24,499 nt of DNA from Armatimonadota bacterium (GTDB taxonomy: Bacteria; Vulcanimicrobiota; JACPDS01; JBDRKI01). The notes under the pieces were generated by a model. That model made no database searches. It saw only the letters and a program-made list of their open reading frames with translations, and was not told the DNA's origin. Shown one piece after another: positions 11,503-21,030 of the stretch (positions are counted from its first letter, which is position 1; every line of letters starts with the position of its first letter). The DNA lies in NCBI GenBank assembly GCA_043814095.1, contig JBDRKI010000064.1, positions 1 through 24,499 of the forward strand. Reading direction: 5' to 3'. The position numbers and the translations under genes were made by a program.

Positions 11503-12069
11503 ATGGTTACCAGAGAAAAAGACATCATCCGGATTATAAATGATATAGCCGGATGCAGAAAGTGCTCCTTATGTTCGGGAAGAAAAAATGCCGTCCCGGG
11601 CGAGGGGTCGCTTAAAGCCGATATTGTTTTTGTGGGTGAAGGTCCGGGCGCAGATGAAGATATTCAAGGCCGTCCTTTTGTGGGCAGGGCAGGCAAACTT
11701 TTATCCGAGCTTCTTAAAGGAATAAACCTTGAAAGGGAAGATGTTTACATAACAAATATAATAAAATGCAGGCCGCCCGGCAACAGGAATCCTAAAGACG
11801 AAGAAATAGAAATCTGTATGCCTTACCTGAGGGATCAGATTAAACTTATAAAGCCCAAACTTATATGCGCCCTGGGCAGTTTTGCTTTAAAAACATTAAT
11901 ATCTAAGGACCTTGCGATAACCGCGTCAAGAGGCAGGGTCTTTAAAAAAGGCGGATTGTATTTTTTTGCCGTCTATCACCCCGCCGCCGCGTTATATAAT
12001 CCGGTACTTGTAAAAGATCTTAAATATGACTTTTTAAAACTTAAAAAATTTATAGAAGAAAAATTATAA
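11503..12069 (+). CDS. Uracil-DNA glycosylase family 4 (Fe-S type)
   Basis: CRKCSLC, VGEGPGADED, PFVGRAGKLL, TNIIKCRPPGNR.P, YHPAA. Confidence 0.93.
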   Translation: MVTREKDIIRIINDIAGCRKCSLCSGRKNAVPGEGSLKADIVFVGEGPGADEDIQGRPFVGRAGKLLSELLKGINLEREDVYITNIIKCRPPGNRNPKDEEIEICMPYLRDQIKLIKPKLICALGSFALKTLISKDLAITASRGRVFKKGGLYFFAVYHPAAALYNPVLVKDLKYDFLKLKKFIEEKL

Positions 12070-12078
12070 GGAGGAGAA

Positions 12079-12453
12079 ATGATTGTAAAAGAACTTCTTT
12101 ACACAAAGGAACATGAATGGGTTAAAACCGAAGGAGATGCCGCCCTAATAGGCATTACCGAATACGCTAAAGACCAGCTCGGGGATATAGTTTTTGTTGA
12201 GATGCCCGAGCCGGGTGCTAAAATAACGCAGTCAAACACATTCGGGGCTGTGGAATCGGTAAAAGCGGTATCAGATCTTTACGCTCCCGTTACGGGAGAG
12301 GTAATTGAGAATAATTCCGCTCTTTCGGATACCCCCGAGCTTATAAACGAAGATCCTTACGGGAAGGGCTGGATAATCAAGGCAAGGCTTGAGAATAAAG
12401 CTGAGCTTGAGGGTCTTTTAAAGCCTGAAGATTATGAAAAGATCATAAGTTAA
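12079..12453 (+). CDS. gcvH: Glycine cleavage system H protein (lipoyl carrier)
   Basis: YTKEHEW, GITEYA..QLGDIVFVE, lipoyl-Lys motif VESVKAVSDLYAPV, NEDPYGKGW. RBS AGGAGG. Confidence 0.96.
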   Translation: MIVKELLYTKEHEWVKTEGDAALIGITEYAKDQLGDIVFVEMPEPGAKITQSNTFGAVESVKAVSDLYAPVTGEVIENNSALSDTPELINEDPYGKGWIIKARLENKAELEGLLKPEDYEKIIS

Positions 12454-12520
12454 ACAGGTTGAGAAAATAACTAAGAAATATTTTTATATAAAACTTGAAG
12501 TATAAAACAAGAGGTGAGTT

Positions 12521-13867
12521 ATGAGCTATATTCCTCACACGGAAAAAGAAGTAAAAGATATGCTTTCGTTTCTGGATTTAAGGCATATTGAAGAACTGTT
12601 TAAGGATATTCCCGATAAGGTTAAATTGAAAAAGGATCTTACTCTTCCTAAAGGATTATCAGAACAGGAGCTCGCCGTTGAACTTAACCGTATCCAGTCG
12701 GAGAATTTTTCTGCTGCAGATAAAGGCGTATATCTCGGGGCCGGCGCCTATAACCATTACGTGCCCGCGGCAATTAATTCCATAATAAGCAGGACTGAGT
12801 TTCTTACCGCCTATACTCCTTACCAGGCGGAAGCAAGCCAGGGGACCCTTCAGGCCATATTCGAGTTCCAGAGTCTTATCTGCCGGATTACGGGAATGGA
12901 TGTCGCGAATGCTTCAATGTATGACGGCGCTTCAGCTCTTTCCGAAGCCGCGCTTATAGCATGCAGCGCAACAGGGAAAAGCAATCTACTTGTTTCTTCA
13001 ACACTGCACCCGGAATACATGGAAGTGCTTAATACATACCTTGCAACTGGAAATAAAGCACAGATAACACTCATACCTCATAAAGACGGCGTGCTTGATA
13101 CGGATTTTATTAAAGAGAATATAACCGATGAGACCGCCGGCGTGATTATCCAGAATCCGAACTTTTTAGGGATAATTGAGGACGGCCCTTCAATAAAAGA
13201 AATATTAAAAGATAAAAAAGCGTTATTCATAGTCTGTATTACGGAGCCTTTGTCTCTGGGAGTATTAAAATCTCCCGGGGAGTACGGCGCCGATATTGTC
13301 GCGGCTGAAGGTCAGAGCTTGGGGCTTCCGCTTTCATTCGGCGGCCCTTATTTAGGTGTTTTAGCCGTAAAAGATAATCTTAAAAGAAAGATCCCGGGGC
13401 GTCTTGCGGGACAAACAGTTGATAAAGAGGGAAAAACAGGTTATGTCCTTACAATGCAGGCAAGGGAACAGCATATAAGGAGAAATAAAGCAGTTTCCAA
13501 CATATGTTCTAATGAAGCGTTATGCGCGCTGGCATCGACAATTTATCTTTCATTGCTCGGCAAAGAAGGGTTTAAGCATCTGTCGGATATTAACCTGCAG
13601 AAAGCGCATTACCTTTTTGATAAGATTTTATCTATTCAGGGATATGAGCTTGTTTTTAAATCTCCTTTTTATAACGAGTTTGTCGTAAAGTGCCCGAAAA
13701 ATCCGTCAGAGATAAACGCTTATCTTGCAGACAGAAGAATTATAGGGGGGTATAACCTTGACGGTGTATTCCAGGGTATGGAGAACTGTATGCTTTTCTG
13801 TGTTACCGAATTAAATACTAAAGAGCAGATGGATAATCTTGTTAAACTGCTGGAAGAATGTAAATAA
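12521..13867 (+). CDS. gcvPA: Glycine dehydrogenase (decarboxylating) subunit 1
   Basis: [63 protein letters not shown]. Confidence 0.96.
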
Positions 13868-13882
13868 GCAGGTGGAGGAAAT

Positions 13883-15370
13883 ATGTACGATAAATCAATA
13901 TTTGAACTCAGTGTTAAAGGAAGAAAAGGCATACCTCTTCCTGATACAGATGTTTCCGTTAAGGATATAAAAGATATTATACCTTCATCAATGCAGGCGG
14001 AAGAATTAAAAGATCTGCCCGAAGTCTCACAACTTGATGTAGTAAGGCATTTTACCAGTTTATCAAGGAAGAATTTCAGCGTGGATACCCATTTTTATCC
14101 ATTAGGCTCATGCACAATGAAATATAATCCTAAAATAAATGAACAGGTAGCAAATCTTCCCGGCTTTACCGGTATTCACCCTTACCAGGATACAGGCCTT
14201 ACACAGGGCTCCCTTTTTATCATAAGCGAGCTTGAGAGATGCCTTTGCGAGATAACCGGTATGGACGCATTTACAATGCAGCCTGCCGCAGGCGCTCACG
14301 GGGAGCTTACAGCCCTTCTCATAATAAAGAAATATTTTGACAAAAAAGAAGAAGCCCGTACTAAAATTATAGTGCCTGATTCCGCGCACGGCACAAATCC
14401 CGCAAGCGCGGCAATGGCGGGTTTTGATGTTGTTCAGGTTAAGTCCGATTACCTGGGTAATATGGATATGGAAGATTTTATATCTAAGATAGACGAAACG
14501 GTAGCCGCTGTTATGCTTACTAACCCGAATACACTGGGTCTTTTTGAGACAAATATTCTGGAGATAGAAAAACTTGCACATGAAAAAGGTGCCCTTATTT
14601 ATTATGACGGGGCTAATGCAAATGCTATACTGGGCATAGCAAGGCCGGGGGACATGGGCTTTGATCTTATCCACCTTAATCTCCATAAGACATTTGCTAC
14701 TCCCCACGGGGGCGGCGGCCCCGGTTCCGGGCCCGTAGGGGTTAAAAGCTTTTTGGAAGAATTTCTGCCCGTACCGCGTGTTAAGCTTGATTCCGGTGCT
14801 TCAAAGTATTTTATGGATTATGATAACCCTTCTTCAATAGGGAGGGTAAGAGCTTTTTACGGCAACTTCCTTGTTCTTGTTAAGGCTTATGCCTATATAC
14901 TTTCATTAGGGGCTGAGGGCTTAAAAAAAGTAAGCCAGACAGCAGTTTTAAACGCTAATTATATAATGAAATCCCTGGCAAGCTGGTATCATCTGCCTTA
15001 CGGAAGGATATGTCAGCATGAGTTTGTTCTTTCGGCTAAGGAGCAGAAAGAACACGGCGTTAAGGCGCTTGATATAGCAAAAAGACTCTTAGATTACGGG
15101 ATACACGCTCCTACCGTATATTTCCCTTTAATCGTGGAAGAAGCGCTTATGATTGAACCTACAGAGACAGAGAGCAAACAGAAAATAGAAGAATTTATAG
15201 CTGTTATGAAAAAAATTGCAGAAGAAGCGGAAAAGACTCCTGAACTTTTAAAAGAAGCGCCCCATACTACTCCCGTAATGCGTCTTGATGAAACTATGGC
15301 CGCGAGGAACCCTATTTTAAAGTATACCGAAGAGAATTGCAGGAAAGAACCTATTAAGGCAGGTTTATGA
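13883..15370 (+). CDS. gcvPB: Glycine dehydrogenase (decarboxylating) subunit 2
   Basis: [34 protein letters not shown]-Lys motif [35 protein letters not shown]. Confidence 0.96.
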
Positions 15371-16179
15371 ACCGGAGAATAGAGTTTGTTTATCCCAATG
15401 ATACTTACCCTGTTTCTTTAACGGGGAGAGACTGTAGTTTGAACTGCAAACATTGCGGTAAATATTATCTTAGTTTTATGAAAACCATGGAAGATATATC
15501 TTCCATAAAAGATAAAAAAAGTTTTCTTATAAGCGGGGGGAGCGATAAAAAGGGAAGAGTCCCGATAAAGAAACATCTGGAGTTTTTAAGGGATTTAAAA
15601 AAACAGGGGTACCGGCTTAACCTTCATACCGGTTTGATTGATAAGTCCCTGCTTGATGATATAAAACCCATAGCCGACAGTGTATCTTTTGATTTTTTAA
15701 CGGATAAGGAAACGATAAACGAAGTTTACAGTCTGGATGTAAACCCCGCTAAGTATTATGAACTGCTGGAAAGCATGCTTTCAAAAGGGATAAACGCTGT
15801 GCCCCATGTGACAATAGGCATACACGGCGGAAAGATAAAAGGAGAATATGACGCCATAAGGGCGCTTAAGGATCTGCCCTGCCGGGAAGTCATCCTTATA
15901 ATATTCATGCCGACCAAGGGTACTTTTTATGAAGACAGGGCTCCTGTGCCGGTAATGGAGGTAAGCAAGCTTTTTTATTACGCGAGAAAAAGTTTGAGCA
16001 ATAAGCGAGTTACCTTAGGGTGTATGCGTCCCAGAGGCAATTACAGGTATTTAACCGATATATCCGCGATTAATAATTATTTTGATAAAGTGGTAATGCC
16101 CCATCCAAAGGCAAGGGAACACGCGAAAGAACGGAAGATGGATATTGTTGAGAAATACGAATGCTGTGCGATAGTTTAA
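15367..16179 (+). CDS. lipS1: Radical SAM protein, LipS1-like subunit of the non-LipA lipoyl synthase
   Basis: CxxxCxxC (CSLNCKHC), LISGG, GCMR motif (16018-16029) and C-terminal CC (16162-16167). These are the motifs described for Thermococcus kodakarensis LipS1. Start overlaps the gcvPB stop (ATGA). Confidence 0.75.
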
Positions 16180-16189
16180 GGATTATATT

Positions 16190-17176
16190 ATGACCGTAAA
16201 AGATAAAATAAAACAGAAGATAAGGATATCAGCCGGCACCGCATCCGTGCTGGGATTAAATAACATGGTACAGAAACATCCTTCCCGGACTGCTTATTTT
16301 ATGGTCGGTGAAAGATGCGAGAACAGCTGTCTTTTCTGCACACAGTCCACATCTTCATGCGCGGATACATCATTTTTATCAAGGATAAGCTGGCCGGAGA
16401 TGGATACTTTAAAAGTTTTTGAGAGGTTGAAAGAAAAAGCGGATCTTACTGAAACAGAAAGAGTATGCTTCCAGGTTGTAGCCGGTAAAGATTCCAATAG
16501 GGATCTTACATGGCTTATTAAAGAGATTAAAAGTAAAGATATTAATGTTAAAATAAGTGTTTCGGTAAATACCAGAGATGCAGAATTTATTGATGAACTT
16601 ATGCTGCTCGGGGCGGATAATATATCAATACCGCTGGATGCGGCAACACCAGAATTATTTAAAAAGCATAAAGGCTGTCAATGGGATAATATATGGGATG
16701 TTCTTGATTATACTGCTGTAAACTATCCCGGGAAGACTGCAACACACCTTATTCTAGGGCTCGGAGAGACTGAGAAAGAGATTATAGAACTGCTTTATAT
16801 CCTGCACCTTAAAGGTATAAATACGGGGCTTTTCGCTTTTACGCCCATTAAAGGAACACCCCTTTCGGATAAGATACCCCCTGAGCTTAGTTATTATAGA
16901 CGGATACAGTTAATATACTATCTAATCAAAAAAAACATATTAACGGAATTTGAATTTAAAGATGATAAATTTAAATTGCCGGATACTGTTAAGAAATTAC
17001 TGAAAGATGATATGAATAACAAAGAATTTAAATACAAAGAAGTTTTTAATACTTGCGGGTGCACTTTATGCACGCGCCCTTATTATAATGAAACTCCGGG
17101 ATCAATCCCTTATAATTACCCCGGAGACCTTACAGATGAAGAATATACAGAAGCCGTGACAGCGGCAATAAGCTAG
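16190..17176 (+). CDS. lipS2: Radical SAM protein, LipS2-like subunit of the non-LipA lipoyl synthase
   Basis: CxxxCxxC (CENSCLFC), LSRISWP, HLILGLGETE, LFAFTP. C-terminal TCGCTLCTRPYYNE resembles the LipS2 motif TxGCPxC(N/D)RP. Adjacent to the lipS1-like gene and gcvH/P. Confidence 0.75.
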   Translation: MTVKDKIKQKIRISAGTASVLGLNNMVQKHPSRTAYFMVGERCENSCLFCTQSTSSCADTSFLSRISWPEMDTLKVFERLKEKADLTETERVCFQVVAGKDSNRDLTWLIKEIKSKDINVKISVSVNTRDAEFIDELMLLGADNISIPLDAATPELFKKHKGCQWDNIWDVLDYTAVNYPGKTATHLILGLGETEKEIIELLYILHLKGINTGLFAFTPIKGTPLSDKIPPELSYYRRIQLIYYLIKKNILTEFEFKDDKFKLPDTVKKLLKDDMNNKEFKYKEVFNTCGCTLCTRPYYNETPGSIPYNYPGDLTDEEYTEAVTAAIS

Positions 17177-17191
17177 AAGACAGGTGATAAA

Positions 17192-18127
17192 ATGGATTCT
17201 TATAAAAGCTCTAAACTGATTTTAGAAACAGCCGGGCTTCTTGAGAAAAATAAGGAGCAGATCTCGCGCGATGCCTCGCGCGCAATATTTGAAAGCATAA
17301 ATACTTACAGGAAAGGCGTAATAACCCAGGAAGAATCGGCACGCACATGTGAAACCTCGTTAGGATACCTTATTTCCTACCTTAAGCATCAGATAGAAAT
17401 TACCCAGATTGACAAAGATAAACTTATAAATGATATTATTCAATTTGAAGAAGGGATAGCAGTAAAAAGGTTAAGATCCGATATAGACCTTAAGGATCTT
17501 TTAAGCGCTGTCTATATTTATAAAAATCAGGTATGGAAGTTCATAAAGGATTATTATATCTCCCATGAACATAATTTTACCTTTAAGGATTTCTTTGTCC
17601 TTGAAGACAGGATTAATACTTTCTATATGCTCCACATAATTGATATAACTGACAGTTATGTGAAAGTTCAGAAAGAGTTCATGCGTTCACAGGAAGCCGC
17701 GTTTAAAAAATGGGAAACAGTCGTGAAAAGCGCTCATAATATTGAGCTTAACATACCATGCCGGGAAGCTTATGCTGCTGTTGCCCGTATGCAGGCAGAA
17801 TCTCTGGCAAGGCGGTTAAGGTTTGACGAGGAAAAAGTGCAGGATATTAAGCTGGCGGTAGGCGAGGCCTGCGCGAACGCCATTGAGCACGGTTCATCAA
17901 GAAACGGTGTCGATGTTCACTACCATATAACACCGTCTAACCTTATTGTTGAGGTTAAGGATTACGGCAGGGGTTTTACTCCTCCGGAAGAAGGCATAGA
18001 TCTTCCTTTAGATCTTTTCTCAGAGCGTGGACGCGGCCTTTATATAATGAAGGCTCTTATGGACAAGGTGGATGTAAAAAGCCAGGTAGGCGAAGGGACC
18101 CTCCTTGTATTGAACAAAGAAAGATAA
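17192..18127 (+). CDS. RsbW/SpoIIAB-like Ser kinase/anti-sigma ATPase domain fused to an N-terminal helical (RsbRD_N-like) domain
   Basis: C-terminal DIKLAVGEACANAIEHG (N box), VKDYGRGF (G1), ERGRGLYIMKALMDKV (G2). The N-terminal ~175 aa are helical and their domain assignment is tentative. Confidence 0.75.
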   Translation: MDSYKSSKLILETAGLLEKNKEQISRDASRAIFESINTYRKGVITQEESARTCETSLGYLISYLKHQIEITQIDKDKLINDIIQFEEGIAVKRLRSDIDLKDLLSAVYIYKNQVWKFIKDYYISHEHNFTFKDFFVLEDRINTFYMLHIIDITDSYVKVQKEFMRSQEAAFKKWETVVKSAHNIELNIPCREAYAAVARMQAESLARRLRFDEEKVQDIKLAVGEACANAIEHGSSRNGVDVHYHITPSNLIVEVKDYGRGFTPPEEGIDLPLDLFSERGRGLYIMKALMDKVDVKSQVGEGTLLVLNKER

Positions 18128-18144
18128 AAACCATTATTTAAAGT

Positions 18145-18185
18145 AAAATTGGCGGTATGTTTATTAAAAATATACCGCCAATTTT
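18145..18185 (+). terminator. Rho-independent terminator closing the long xseA operon
   Basis: AAAATTGGCGGTAT-(13 nt)-ATACCGCCAATTTT perfect 14-bp stem, followed by gtttc, 17 bp after the stop at 18127. Confidence 0.85.
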
Positions 18186-18256
18186 GTTTCCTCCGCTCCA
18201 TTATATCCTATAATACAATGTTTTATGTCAGTAATATATCAATAAAAGGAAGAATT

Positions 18257-18274
18257 GTTAACAAAAATTTAACA
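18257..18274. promoter_or_regulatory. Putative transcription-factor site: direct repeat GTTAACA-N4-TTTAACA (11-bp period)
   Basis: Intergenic, ~85 bp upstream of the ORF at 18358. Matches the repeat at 3309-3326. Confidence 0.4.
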
Positions 18275-18357
18275 TTTTTTAGCATAAAAAGCCTTGTGAT
18301 TATCAAGGAATTATTATAACATAGTAATAGTCAATCATCTTCAAGGGGGATTTTTTT

Positions 18358-19263
18358 ATGAATTTAGTAAGCAGGATCGGCGCTTATTCTTTGACGGAGT
18401 TTTCCGGAGCAAAAAAATCCGGAGAAAAATCAATTAATATTAACAGAAGCATAAATTTTGCGAAGCTGAATATTAAGGTAAATGAAAGAATAAAATTTAT
18501 TGACGAGGCTTTAAGCAAACATACCTTTAGAGACGGAAAGCTTTGTGTAACCGTTAAAGTAATGCCCGGGCAGATAGATCCATGCACGGGGAGCACATAC
18601 GGCGGATCCAGTCCGGTTGTTAAGTATAAGGTTCTAAGCGATATTGAAAAGAATAGCTACAATAGCTTACTTAAAGAAAAAAAGGAGCTTATAGCGGTAC
18701 CTAAAAAGATATTAGAGCAGGTTAAGGCGGTAAGATGTGCTCCTTTTAGTTCAATATGCGGTACTTCCGATATAAAGACGGAAGTGTGTAAGTATAAAGC
18801 CACCCTGTGTTCTTATGAACTGTGTGCCGGTGGGATTGATAAGGAATTAAGCTTGATCCATAGCTCATACAGGAATGTAAGCGGCAGATGGTTTAAATTA
18901 GTATCTGAAACATATACTCCGGGACAGAGATATCCGGGCACAAATATAATACTTAGCAGTTCAAAGGCCAAAGAAAAATTAATACCTCTTAGTGCGGCAG
19001 AAGAAAAGAGGGTAGCGGATAGGTTTAATAGATTGCAAAAAGAGAAAGAAAGAATCCAGCAGAAAGCAGTAGCAGAATGCGGCTTTAAAAACAGAACCGA
19101 GTTTGCGGAAGCCTTAAGTAAAAAGATACGTGAATTTGAAAAACTTGAAAAATATTTGAAAAATGCGACTTCGGAGATTATTTTAAAGGGTGAGATCCAG
19201 TGGTGTATAAAAACCAGGGAAGAGCTTAAAAGTATGAAGGCGGTATGGGACACGGTAAATTAA
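18358..19263 (+). CDS. Hypothetical protein with two copies of an unrecognised ~65 aa repeat
   Basis: 301 aa ORF preceded by an AAGGGGG RBS. No family recognised. Internal similarity between aa ~48-111 and ~160-233. Confidence 0.75.
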   Translation: MNLVSRIGAYSLTEFSGAKKSGEKSININRSINFAKLNIKVNERIKFIDEALSKHTFRDGKLCVTVKVMPGQIDPCTGSTYGGSSPVVKYKVLSDIEKNSYNSLLKEKKELIAVPKKILEQVKAVRCAPFSSICGTSDIKTEVCKYKATLCSYELCAGGIDKELSLIHSSYRNVSGRWFKLVSETYTPGQRYPGTNIILSSSKAKEKLIPLSAAEEKRVADRFNRLQKEKERIQQKAVAECGFKNRTEFAEALSKKIREFEKLEKYLKNATSEIILKGEIQWCIKTREELKSMKAVWDTVN

Positions 19264-19276
19264 GGGGGATAATTAT

Positions 19277-20095
19277 ATGAAAGTAAACCCGAGTAGCTGT
19301 ATTTCATTGAATATAGCGCAGAAAAGCGACATAGACAATGAGCTTAAAGCTCTTAAAGAAAAAATAGATAATAAACTAAAAAAACTGGATGAGGAACTCT
19401 CGGTATACGGTATTGATGAACATGATAATGAACTTTGCAGGATTGAGATTGTTAACTTAGCTTTAGAGGGAGAAAAGCCTATTAAAGTTAAAGAGTATAG
19501 CCCATTATTCCAGGGAGAGAAAGCCAGAGCCGAACTATTATTTAAAGTAAGGGATAATTTAAATAAGTTAAAAACTGTAGCAGATTCATTAAGTACAATT
19601 GAGCTTACCGGTAATTATAATTCAGATTTAAATAAAATAGAAGATATTAAACTTTTTAACAGCATTAATAAAGAACTAAACCTTTATAATATTATTATAA
19701 GGGATGCTAAAGAGTTTCCGGGCGGTGTGCTTATGGTAAAAAAAGTTATTAAAACACCGGGTGAGCATAATATAGTAACCGGAAAGTCCGACTCTGTTGT
19801 TATGTATGAGTATAAGCCGGCAACACCCGATGAAAAGAAGCAGTATGAACTTGCAAAATTTAAAAAACCGGTACTGGAATTAAAAAGAAAAGTAATATTT
19901 AAAAAATATAATAATGCAATGCCGGAAGCCGATAAGGGTTTTCTGGCGGATTCGGTAAAAACAAATATACGCATAAAGAAGTTTTTTGCGGACAGCAAGA
20001 TGAAGGAAGAAGCCGATATAAGTGCAGGGGTTGACCGTATTTTAAGATATGTGATGAAGCTCTGGAGTGAAGCGGAACAGAAAACAAGGAATTAG
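19277..20095 (+). CDS. Hypothetical protein, probable distant paralog of 18358..19263
   Basis: 272 aa ORF preceded by an AAGGGGGA RBS, 13 bp after the previous stop. Similar repeat at aa ~37-95 and ~130-200. Confidence 0.75.
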   Translation: MKVNPSSCISLNIAQKSDIDNELKALKEKIDNKLKKLDEELSVYGIDEHDNELCRIEIVNLALEGEKPIKVKEYSPLFQGEKARAELLFKVRDNLNKLKTVADSLSTIELTGNYNSDLNKIEDIKLFNSINKELNLYNIIIRDAKEFPGGVLMVKKVIKTPGEHNIVTGKSDSVVMYEYKPATPDEKKQYELAKFKKPVLELKRKVIFKKYNNAMPEADKGFLADSVKTNIRIKKFFADSKMKEEADISAGVDRILRYVMKLWSEAEQKTRN

Positions 20096-20112
20096 GAAAA
20101 ATATTTAAAAAT

Positions 20113-20146
20113 AAGAGGTTGGATTTAAAATGTCCGGCCTCTTTTT
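20113..20146 (+). terminator. Rho-independent terminator after the two hypothetical genes
   Basis: AAGAGGTTGGA-(9 nt)-TCCGGCCTCTT stem with two G-U pairs, running into a T tract, 17 bp after the stop at 20095. Confidence 0.7.
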
Positions 20147-20181
20147 AATTTTATAGGAATTTTTACACTTTTAAAGAATAG

Positions 20182-21030
20182 GTGGATATGCAGAAAGCAA
20201 GATTAATAATAGAAAAAGACTTAAAAGCTTCTCATCATATGGCGTCAGATGAGGCGTTGCTTGAGTATGCCATTAACAACGAAAAAGATTTTATTCCCGC
20301 TTTAAGGCTTTATACATGGTCTCCGGCAGGTATCTCTTTAGGGTATTTCCAGAAAACGGAAAAGGAAATAAATATTGATAACTGCAGGAAGCACGGTGTT
20401 GATATTATAAGGAGGCCCACGGGGGGTAAATCAGTACTCCATGATGATGAGCTTACTTACTGCTTTATCTTCAAGATGGATGATCCGAACAGATGGACAA
20501 TTCTAGACGCTTTTAAGAAGATTAATGAAGCACTGCTTTACGCCATAAAAAGAATGGGTGTTAAAGCACAGCTTGTTTCCCTTAAGAAGCATTCCCCGAA
20601 AGAACATACTGCGGTCTGCTTCGCGGTGCCTTCTTCTTATGAAATAAAGGTGGATAATAAAAAGATAATAGGGTCAGCCCAGAAAAGAGCGGGTAATTTT
20701 GTGCTCCAGCACGGCTCCGTGCCTATAACCATAGACAGAAATAAGCTTTATGATTTATTTAACTTTAAAAGTGAAGAGGAAAGGAAAAAGCAAGCGGAAG
20801 AATCCGTAAATATAATGACGTCTTTAAAAGAAGCTGCGCCTTTTTCTGATATGAATTTTGATAATCTGGCGGAAGGCGTAAAGGAAGGTTTTGAGAAGGT
20901 CTGGGGAATCAGTTTATATAAAGATAAGTTAAATAAGGAAGAAGAAGGCATTAGGGATAAATTGATAGAAATAAAATACGGCACGGATGATTGGAATTAT
21001 AATAAATTAATAAAAAACAGGAGCATATAA
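20182..21030 (+). CDS. Lipoate-protein ligase/octanoyltransferase family protein (LipM-like, catalytic domain only)
   Basis: MASDEALL, LRLYTW, SLGYFQ, RRPTGGKSVLHDDELTY, CFAVPSSYEI, KKIIGSAQKR, LQHGS. At 282 aa there is no C-terminal LplA accessory domain. Start is either GTG 20182 or ATG 20188. Confidence 0.85.
   Translation: MDMQKARLIIEKDLKASHHMASDEALLEYAINNEKDFIPALRLYTWSPAGISLGYFQKTEKEINIDNCRKHGVDIIRRPTGGKSVLHDDELTYCFIFKMDDPNRWTILDAFKKINEALLYAIKRMGVKAQLVSLKKHSPKEHTAVCFAVPSSYEIKVDNKKIIGSAQKRAGNFVLQHGSVPITIDRNKLYDLFNFKSEEERKKQAEESVNIMTSLKEAAPFSDMNFDNLAEGVKEGFEKVWGISLYKDKLNKEEEGIRDKLIEIKYGTDDWNYNKLIKNRSI

Follow-up and report, generated by a model that had tools for sequence, protein, structure and literature searches.

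LipS1, LipS2 and a LipM-like enzyme at a glycine cleavage operon of an Armatimonadota bacterium: a probable LipA-independent route to lipoyl-GcvH

How does a bacterium that encodes a glycine cleavage system, but in which no lipoyl synthase LipA is found, obtain the lipoylated form of its glycine cleavage H protein (GcvH)? The question is raised by a stretch of DNA from an Armatimonadota bacterium (GCA_043814095.1, contig JBDRKI010000064.1, positions 1-24,499, + strand), referred to here as the window, by which we mean the whole 24,499 nucleotides. Within it, gcvH, gcvPA and gcvPB are followed by two radical S-adenosylmethionine (SAM) genes, lipS1 and lipS2, and further on by the gene of a single-domain enzyme that resembles lipoate ligases and the octanoyltransferase LipM. 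We consider it highly probable that the region encodes a self-contained, LipA-free route to lipoyl-GcvH. The LipS1/LipS2 call is right but ordinary rather than new, as curated models of both proteins already exist, and the assignment adds one more lineage to a published pathway. Modest additional interest comes from the mutual exclusivity of LipA and LipS1/LipS2 at a fixed operon slot, and from an undescribed sensor kinase encoded in the same cluster.

LipS1, LipS2 and the absence of LipA

The features of the window on which the argument draws are listed below.

11503-12069, +, gene of a family-4 uracil-DNA glycosylase
12079-12453, +, gcvH, glycine cleavage H protein (TIGR00527 173.4 bits, cut-off 115.85; PF01597 159.9 bits; lipoyl-lysine motif VESVKAV)
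12521-13867, +, gcvPA, glycine dehydrogenase subunit 1 (NF001696 613.9 bits, cut-off 364)
13883-15370, +, gcvPB, glycine dehydrogenase subunit 2 (NF003346 753.6 bits, cut-off 441)
15367-16179, +, lipS1 (NF053742 276.1 bits, cut-off 230), overlapping the gcvPB stop in an ATGA
16190-17176, +, lipS2 (NF053743 319.7 bits, cut-off 270)
17192-18127, +, gene of a 311-residue sensor kinase with a HATPase_c_2 domain (PF13581 91.8 bits, residues 191-308)
18358-19263, +, orphan open reading frame A, 301 residues, without a family match
19277-20095, +, orphan open reading frame B, 272 residues, without a family match
20113-20143, +, terminator-like hairpin of 12 pairs with a T-rich tail (from a consensus scan only)
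20182-21030, +, gene of a single-domain LplA/LipM-type enzyme (PF21948 127.5 bits)
Downstream of the last gene, +, hutH, pilT and yggS, in that order

The original prediction had described two adjoining radical SAM genes directly behind gcvH-gcvPA-gcvPB, the first of them overlapping the gcvPB stop, with a single-domain LipM-like ligase gene about 3 kb downstream and neither lipA nor lipB in the window. This layout is confirmed, every element lying where it had been placed. The list of open reading frames (ORFs) contains both radical SAM genes at those coordinates, the start and stop codons of the overlap (ATG and TGA) share the ATGA, the one-domain ligase-like gene begins 3.0 kb past the lipS2 stop, and whole-genome profile searches agree with the window on the missing lipA and lipB. 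The cysteine motifs that had been read in the two products are likewise all seen, GCMR and a terminal CC in the first and TCGCTLCTRP in the second.

The identity of the two radical SAM proteins is carried by their scores on NF053742 and NF053743, the curated equivalog models for LipS1 and LipS2 (NCBIfam release 20). LipS1 scores 276.1 bits with an E-value (E) of 3e-82 and covers model positions 1-268 of 268, while LipS2 scores 319.7 bits with an E of 2e-95; the next-best radical SAM ORFs of the genome reach 40 and 32 bits on the LipS1 and LipS2 models, respectively. On the LipA models, LipS2 scores 20-24 bits against cut-offs of 203-210. The comparison by hidden Markov model (HMM) that the original prediction had suggested thus came out in its favor, as both proteins pass the curated equivalog cut-offs and keep the mapped ligand pattern, and it supports, far beyond chance, their membership of the LipS1 and LipS2 families. 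The same prediction held that automated pipelines would give both genes generic names. This is half right: most homologues in the databases are still called “radical SAM protein”, but the curated models NF053742 and NF053743 exist.

A closer look at the residues shows conservation where metal ligands would be expected by comparison with the Thermococcus kodakarensis enzymes. In LipS1, the radical SAM cysteines C23, C27 and C30 (Cx3Cx2C), H147, C219 (within GCMR) and C266 are invariant among 23 homologues and C267 is conserved in at least 90% of them, the last two cysteines lying in the protein end YECCAIV. In LipS2, which carries the stretches CENSCLFC and TCGCTLCTRP, C43, C47 and C50 (Cx3Cx2C), C93, H186, and C291 and C294 (CxxC) are invariant in 14 of 14 sequences, an alignment made up of the window, 11 loci of the same phylum and 2 of Bacillota. 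The cluster ligands described for TK2109 (LipS1) are C27/31/34 together with C230, C276, C277 and probably H159, and those for TK2248 (LipS2) are C39/43/46 together with C85, C276, C279 and probably H178 (Neti et al., 2022, PMC9585515). The residues of the window proteins agree with these in order and spacing, an equivalence judged by order, spacing and HMM matches and not by direct alignment. Among solved structures, no sequence relative of either protein was found at E ≤ 0.01. The two genes are separated by 10 nt in the window and also adjoin at 12 of the 13 LipS1 loci from the same phylum and at two of the three named loci; they are apart at L048 and L022, and LipS2 is found on a separate contig (G019:C9).

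The need for such a pair follows from the rest of the genome, an assembly of 2.50 Mb in 129 contigs that is 98.97% complete and in which the window is contig C64. The search for lipA that the original prediction had proposed returned 0 matches genome-wide (TIGR00510, E ≤ 0.01), with a control that matched 12 of 14 known genomes. The partners of GcvH outside the window are present, with gcvT on contig C97 and lipoamide dehydrogenase (Lpd) on contig C28 (465 bits, cut-off 408.8); acyl carrier protein (ACP) is also encoded on contig C97 (120.7 bits). Since GcvH, GcvT, GcvPA/GcvPB and Lpd are all encoded and LipA is not found, lipoyl-GcvH must be needed without LipA. The family GCV_H has one match genome-wide, the GcvH of the window, which passes the GcvH equivalog cut-off, while Biotin_lipoyl matches three proteins, of which one is a biotin carrier (EAMKLM), one has a domain that lacks the lysine and one is an efflux adaptor; no lipoyl E2 protein is among them. 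GcvH is therefore the only lipoyl acceptor found. It follows that the client in this organism is GcvH and not LbpA, as the only GCV_H-family protein passes the GcvH cut-off, and that with GcvH as sole client the amidotransferase LipL is not needed.

Two side observations concern the biotinyl/lipoyl carrier domains. The lysine-less domain is a 159-residue ORF (G000:C105:3944-4420, +, where G000 is the genome of the window) that scores 40 bits on Biotin_lipoyl and has ETMSIM in place of xMKM, so that the modified lysine is absent; judged by this motif, it would escape both biotinylation and lipoylation. The biotin carrier protein is encoded although no canonical biotin synthase was found in the genome.

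The relation of LipS1/LipS2 to LipA was then followed through a phylum sample of 151 genomes, which includes the genome of the window (one genome, G127, enters the tallies only). LipA is found in 131, LipS2 in 14 and both in 0 of the 151, counts that come from related and so not independent genomes and from which, without a species tree, the number and direction of gains and losses are not readable. The 14 genomes with LipS2 are the same 14 that have LipS1, which was searched for in 41 genomes. LipS1/LipS2 stands in for LipA within the phylum. Six genomes have neither LipA nor LipS2, of which three are 61-65% complete and three 94-97% complete. The latter are G051, G059 and G086, and in G051 neither gcvP nor a ligase gene was detected near the locus, which has the order gcvT-gcvH-kinase.

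Gene order places this exchange at a single position. In L039, L047 and L051, which are relatives from other families, the order is gcvH-gcvPA-gcvPB-lipS1-lipS2-kinase-ligase, and in L044 it is the same as far as the kinase gene, with no ligase gene in reach. The sole relative from the same order (G001, 75% complete) has LipA and shows gcvPB-kinase-ligase-hutH with no lipS gene between, on a contig that stops inside gcvPB (70% identical to that of the window). Nine other genomes without LipS show gcvT-gcvH-(gcvPA-gcvPB)-kinase, followed directly by the ligase gene in seven and, further on, by hutH and pilT in eight. Apart from lipS1-lipS2 itself, loci with and without the pair match, and the pair thus takes a single fixed place, after gcvPB and before the kinase gene, in a conserved cluster. 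Outside the phylum, two named Bacillota (L023, L024) have lipS1-lipS2-ligase. In a LipS1 tree, the window and 12 of the 13 same-phylum loci fall in one 35-row clade with 95 in the Shimodaira-Hasegawa-like approximate likelihood ratio test (SH-aLRT), apart from the rows of Bacillota, Chloroflexi and Thermotogota; the tree is a quick one of 135 rows, with SH-aLRT as its only support, no outgroup and a long-branch warning. A second type of pair was seen in G034, a 7.4 Mb genome with two LipS1/LipS2 pairs, L047 (G034:C3) and L049 (G034:C33:56800-76600). The L049 pair is 29-30% identical to that of the window, belongs to another clade of the LipS1 tree and has a distant homologue of the ligase 2 kb away.

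The phylum thus offers a clean natural experiment in non-orthologous displacement, with a swap at a single operon position even within one order. Published work on bacterial LipS1/LipS2 centers on LbpA clients, and because the swap is so clean, the function of LipS1/LipS2 on a genuine GcvH becomes directly testable.

The single-domain ligase-like enzyme and the proposed route

The third enzyme of the route is 282 amino acids long (the database gene call begins 2 codons later and gives 280) and consists of PF21948 and PF03099 alone, with no C-terminal accessory domain. It is not a two-domain sLpl(AB) or Lpl(AB), as the fused LplB domain is absent and its scores fall below the curated cut-offs, at 96 bits for LplA_large (cut-off 480), 73 for LplAB (550) and 88 for lipoyltrans (280). 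The 109 homologues found are all 198-325 residues long, within a searched length range of 155-494 residues. All 18 single-domain homologues that were aligned keep both C146 and K161, and a cysteine at the position of C146 is what we take to be a mark of LipM. In Bacillus subtilis LipM, the catalytic cysteine reportedly lies 15 residues before the lysine, in the numbering C150 and K165, and the window enzyme has C146 and K161 at the same spacing. The nearest solved relative is the catalytic subunit of Thermoplasma acidophilum LplA (2ars, E 3.8e-22), in which a serine stands opposite C146. A relative of this kind agrees with a tree in which LipM derives from archaeal LplAB (Tanabe et al., 2023, PMC10332631). 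No second LplA- or LipB-type gene is found, the window enzyme being the only PF21948 match over the cut-off in the genome, and no match to the LplB accessory domain PF10437 passes the cut-off genome-wide. From these sequence features, the enzyme is likely LipM-like, and it is probably an octanoyl-ACP:GcvH octanoyltransferase.

Taken together, the model scores, the ligand residues, the lack of LipA, and a GcvH in the same operon as the only acceptor support the LipA-independent lipoate assembly that the original prediction had put forward. In the proposed route, the single-domain LplA-family enzyme would first octanoylate Lys62 of GcvH, most likely by LipM-type transfer from octanoyl-ACP through an acyl-Cys146 intermediate. 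LipS2 would then insert sulfur at C8 and LipS1 at C6, by analogy with TK2248 and TK2109, respectively, each protein presumably using a radical SAM [4Fe-4S] cluster and an auxiliary [4Fe-4S] cluster. That the pair inserts sulfur into octanoyl-GcvH is what we infer from the Thermococcus enzymes. The resulting lipoyl-GcvH would partner with the GcvPA/GcvPB of its own operon and with the products of gcvT and lpd on other contigs.

Four observations weigh against this route. The first is the indirect mapping onto TK2109 and TK2248 described above. The second is that no canonical BioB is found in the genome although a biotin carrier is present, which suits a reading in which the radical SAM pair are BioB-like sulfur inserters for another substrate, such as biotin, and their proximity to the gcv genes is incidental. 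For a long time, LipS proteins were indeed labeled biotin synthases (Neti et al., 2022, PMC9585515). However, LipS2 reaches 36 bits on the BioB model, where the cut-off is 225, against 320 on the LipS2 model, where it is 270, and the two genes sit within the operon of the only lipoyl protein. The LipS1/LipS2 genes also track the absence of LipA and not that of BioB across the phylum sample, since G001 too lacks BioB and LipS1/LipS2 yet has LipA, and since LipA and LipS2 never occur together. We regard the biotin reading as extremely improbable. The best BioB scores in the two genomes of the order are 35 bits (G000, where the best match is LipS2 itself) and 33 bits (G001) against the cut-off of 225, and this lineage may rely on biotin import.

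The third observation is a 104-residue ORF on another contig (G000:C120:5243-5554, -, the same as L052:1393-1707, -) that matches the LplB domain (Lip_prot_lig_C) at 17.8-18 bits, with a cut-off of 24. It bears on a second alternative, in which LipS1/LipS2 act as proposed but the 282-residue enzyme is an ATP-dependent octanoate or lipoate ligase of the archaeal bipartite LplA type, working alone or with an LplB-like helper and using free octanoate or scavenged lipoate instead of octanoyl-ACP. This fits with 2ars as the closest solved relative and with LplA_large as the best NCBIfam match. The LplB-like ORF would supply a helper, and T. acidophilum LplB (3r07_C) is its second-best solved match, at E 0.3. 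In the tree of Tanabe et al. (2023, PMC10332631), LipM moreover lies inside the archaeal LplAB clade, with the switch between the two inferred several times, and such nesting and repeated switching make sequence alone a weak guide to whether an enzyme is a ligase or a LipM. The candidate helper is itself doubtful: its LplB match, the sole Pfam match, remains below threshold, the GDFF-like stretch is lost, the ORF does not lie near the ligase-like gene but between the gene of a HEAT-repeat protein and an unknown gene, and as a query it gave no match in 40 relatives, some of which have the same ligase. Cys146, invariant in the 18 single-domain homologues, contrasts with the serine of the true ligase, and the scores of the window enzyme lie far under the curated ligase cut-offs. 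On this balance we hold an ATP-dependent ligase to be unlikely, and continue to favor a LipM-type transferase.

The fourth observation is that co-expression of the ligase-like gene with the operon is not assured, because two orphan ORFs and the terminator-like hairpin intervene. Searches of Pfam, NCBIfam and PHROG matched neither ORF A nor ORF B, the Atlas gave nothing usable for ORF A, and tblastn against 30 loci from 24 other genomes and against the rest of their own genome matched neither ORF. They are not significantly alike (E 0.10). Their placement between the kinase and ligase genes is seen in this genome only, and the G+C fraction is 0.351 for positions 18001-20000 versus 0.385-0.44 on either side. 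The stretch 18358-20143 looks like a recent insertion, one that may have cut the ligase gene off from the operon. The hairpin scan of the region found 16 sites where 9.8 were expected.

The remaining observations on the window concern its flanks and its occurrence in environmental data. The glycosylase gene ends 9 nt before the start of gcvH, and no glycine riboswitch was found in the window with Rfam at gathering scores. Three groundwater metagenome runs contain small shares of the window (0.06-0.12), as short contigs, and an RNA run leaves most of it uncovered. Contigs of a groundwater metatranscriptome are identical to positions 13867-14146, at the gcvPA/gcvPB junction, and 19698-19999, part of ORF B; the library may hold DNA, so transcription is not shown by them.

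The 311-residue sensor kinase

The gene between lipS2 and the orphan ORFs encodes a protein whose C-terminal domain is of the RsbW/SpoIIAB type (PF13581 91.8 bits, cut-off 27.4). Its N, G1 and G2 boxes are intact, and the motifs EACANAIEHG, DYGRGF and ERGRG are conserved. In the predicted model (predicted local distance difference test, pLDDT, 79.3), residues 180-311 align to SpoIIAB (1l0o) with a VIA-align Z of 18.7 and a root-mean-square deviation (rmsd) of 2.4 over 129 residues, and to RsbW with a Z of 17.7. Residues 2-161 align over 127-136 residues to pXO2-61 (3pmc_B, Z 13.4), a stressosome structure (3zta, 12.3) and the RsbR N-domain (2bnl, 10.5), where a Z below about 13 may reflect a common helical arrangement only. 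Assignment of the N-terminal ~160 residues as a globin-like sensor domain is accordingly a borderline call from the model. PF14361 (RsbRD_N) is precomputed for 4 of 17 homologues and not for the kinase of the window, and haem binding is unlikely, as the N-terminal domain has no invariant histidine.

The family is small: a word-indexed search gave 17 full-length homologues, and among 1.84 billion representatives about 8 are full-length members. Of the 151 genomes in the phylum sample, 34 have a full-length match, namely all 14 LipS genomes and 20 others, and the neighborhood was read in 23 of the 34. In 19 of these 23 the kinase gene lies directly 3′ of gcvPB, gcvH or lipS2, and in 12 it lies directly 5′ of the ligase gene, with 36-52% identity across families (the kinase-cluster loci are the window, L039, L041, L042, L044, L045, L047, L050, L051, L055 and L060-L068). 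In the other 4 it is found beside a PAS histidine kinase and T2SS-F gene, a methylenetetrahydrofolate reductase gene, an HTH-S24 gene, or unknown genes. One of these, L057 (G019:C1:59000-78000), has as the downstream neighbor of the kinase gene a methylenetetrahydrofolate reductase fusion gene, which also belongs to one-carbon metabolism; this may be a coincidence. A role of the kinase as an accessory of LipS1/LipS2 was considered and dropped, as the 10 LipS-less genomes that were examined have it just as well, and in the same place. Being kept in LipS-less genomes too, it belongs with the gcv and ligase genes rather than with LipS1/LipS2.

Our best guess for the kinase is a regulator tied to the operon, of the partner-switching or anti-sigma type. 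Two STAS proteins are encoded elsewhere in the genome, as is another HATPase_c_2 protein, and because these are available, an ordinary partner-switching role is the default. A bolder proposal is that the kinase acts directly on the proteins of glycine cleavage or of lipoylation: when a ligand binds the globin-like domain it might, for instance, phosphorylate GcvP, GcvH or the ligase, and it would then correspond to the lipoyl-domain-docking kinases of mitochondria. The position kept in 19 of 23 genomes, in 12 of them before the ligase gene and in divergent families, is consistent with this, as are the small size and lineage restriction of the family and its intact ATP-binding boxes. Foldseek rows for the mitochondrial-type kinases PDK and BCKDK were also obtained, at a template modeling (TM) score of about 0.25 and an rmsd of about 23 Å, which indicates a shared ATPase fold at most, and a specific relationship to PDK or BCKDK was rejected on these values. 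Yet structure comparison points first to SpoIIAB and RsbW (Z 17-19), which are known to act on STAS proteins and sigma factors; the STAS and HATPase_c_2 proteins of the genome make partner switching available; the surroundings are unrelated in 4 of 23 genomes; and a gene order shared within one phylum may be mere inheritance. Direct action on these proteins is, in our judgment, improbable.

In its fullest form, this proposal gives the kinase the one task of controlling either glycine cleavage or the lipoylation of GcvH, with a non-haem globin domain that would sense a small hydrophobic ligand or redox state and a kinase domain that would phosphorylate or sequester a component. We think this a long shot. 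If true, the protein would parallel, in a bacterium, the kinases by which mitochondria regulate their lipoate-dependent dehydrogenases. A complex prediction for the kinase and the ligase, run without controls, gave no answer, with a score of 0.00 against a mark of 0.32. A literature search, limited to the library available, found no paper on a globin-like or RsbW-type protein with glycine cleavage, and none on the pXO2-61 globin with fatty acid. The main text of Tanabe et al. (2023, PMC10332631) mentions no kinase, anti-sigma factor, ATPase, globin, RsbW or gcvP, and its supplementary tables may list the lineage or the gcv linkage. Whichever role is right, a kinase family kept in the gcv/lipoylation cluster across divergent families hints at an unstudied control over glycine cleavage or cofactor attachment.

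Comparison with known systems

The kinase shares with RsbW/SpoIIAB kinases its C-terminal fold and ATP boxes, and its N-terminal part gives borderline matches to non-haem globin sensors. The protein differs from these and from RsbR-type sensors in that both domains are fused in 311 residues, and in that its gene sits in a metabolic operon with no sigma factor or STAS gene beside it.

For the lipoyl synthase, the closest precedent is T. kodakarensis TK2109/TK2248, where two adjacent radical SAM proteins with a Cx3Cx2C motif and a second set of Cys/His ligands also replace LipA (Neti et al., 2022, PMC9585515). The host in the present case is a bacterium, the partner is a single-domain LipM-like enzyme and not a bipartite LplA-LplB, and the genes lie inside the gcvH-gcvPA-gcvPB operon.

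Within bacteria, the function of LipS1/LipS2 has been shown (Tanabe et al., 2023, PMC10332631), and the sulfur oxidizers Hyphomicrobium denitrificans and Thioalkalivibrio likewise use LipS1 and LipS2 as a lipoyl synthase, in the sLpl(AB)-LipS1/LipS2 system (Tanabe et al., 2023, PMC10332631; Kumpel et al., 2026, preprint). These organisms use the two-domain sLpl(AB) as ligase, which generally fails on GcvH, and their client is the LbpA of the sHdr system; LipA is usually present as well (Tanabe et al., 2023, PMC10332631; Kumpel et al., 2026, preprint). The window has no two-domain ligase (73 bits on LplAB, cut-off 550), and LipA is not found. The LipM/LipA pathway of B. subtilis provides the precedent for an LplA-family enzyme that has a single domain and is specific for GcvH (Cao et al., 2018, PMC6067878), with the difference that sulfur would here be inserted by LipS1/LipS2 instead of LipA.

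The combination of LipS1/LipS2 with a LipM-like enzyme, which the original prediction had singled out, is supported for the window but is not new, as LipS1/LipS2 and LipM without a lipoate ligase have been reported from Schekmanbacteria, Synergistota and Thermotogota (Tanabe et al., 2023, PMC10332631). The window appears to follow the same three-enzyme logic as these bacterial systems, and differs from them in its phylum, whose LipS1 proteins form a clade of their own in the quick tree, and in the sensor kinase gene that stands between lipS2 and the ligase gene.

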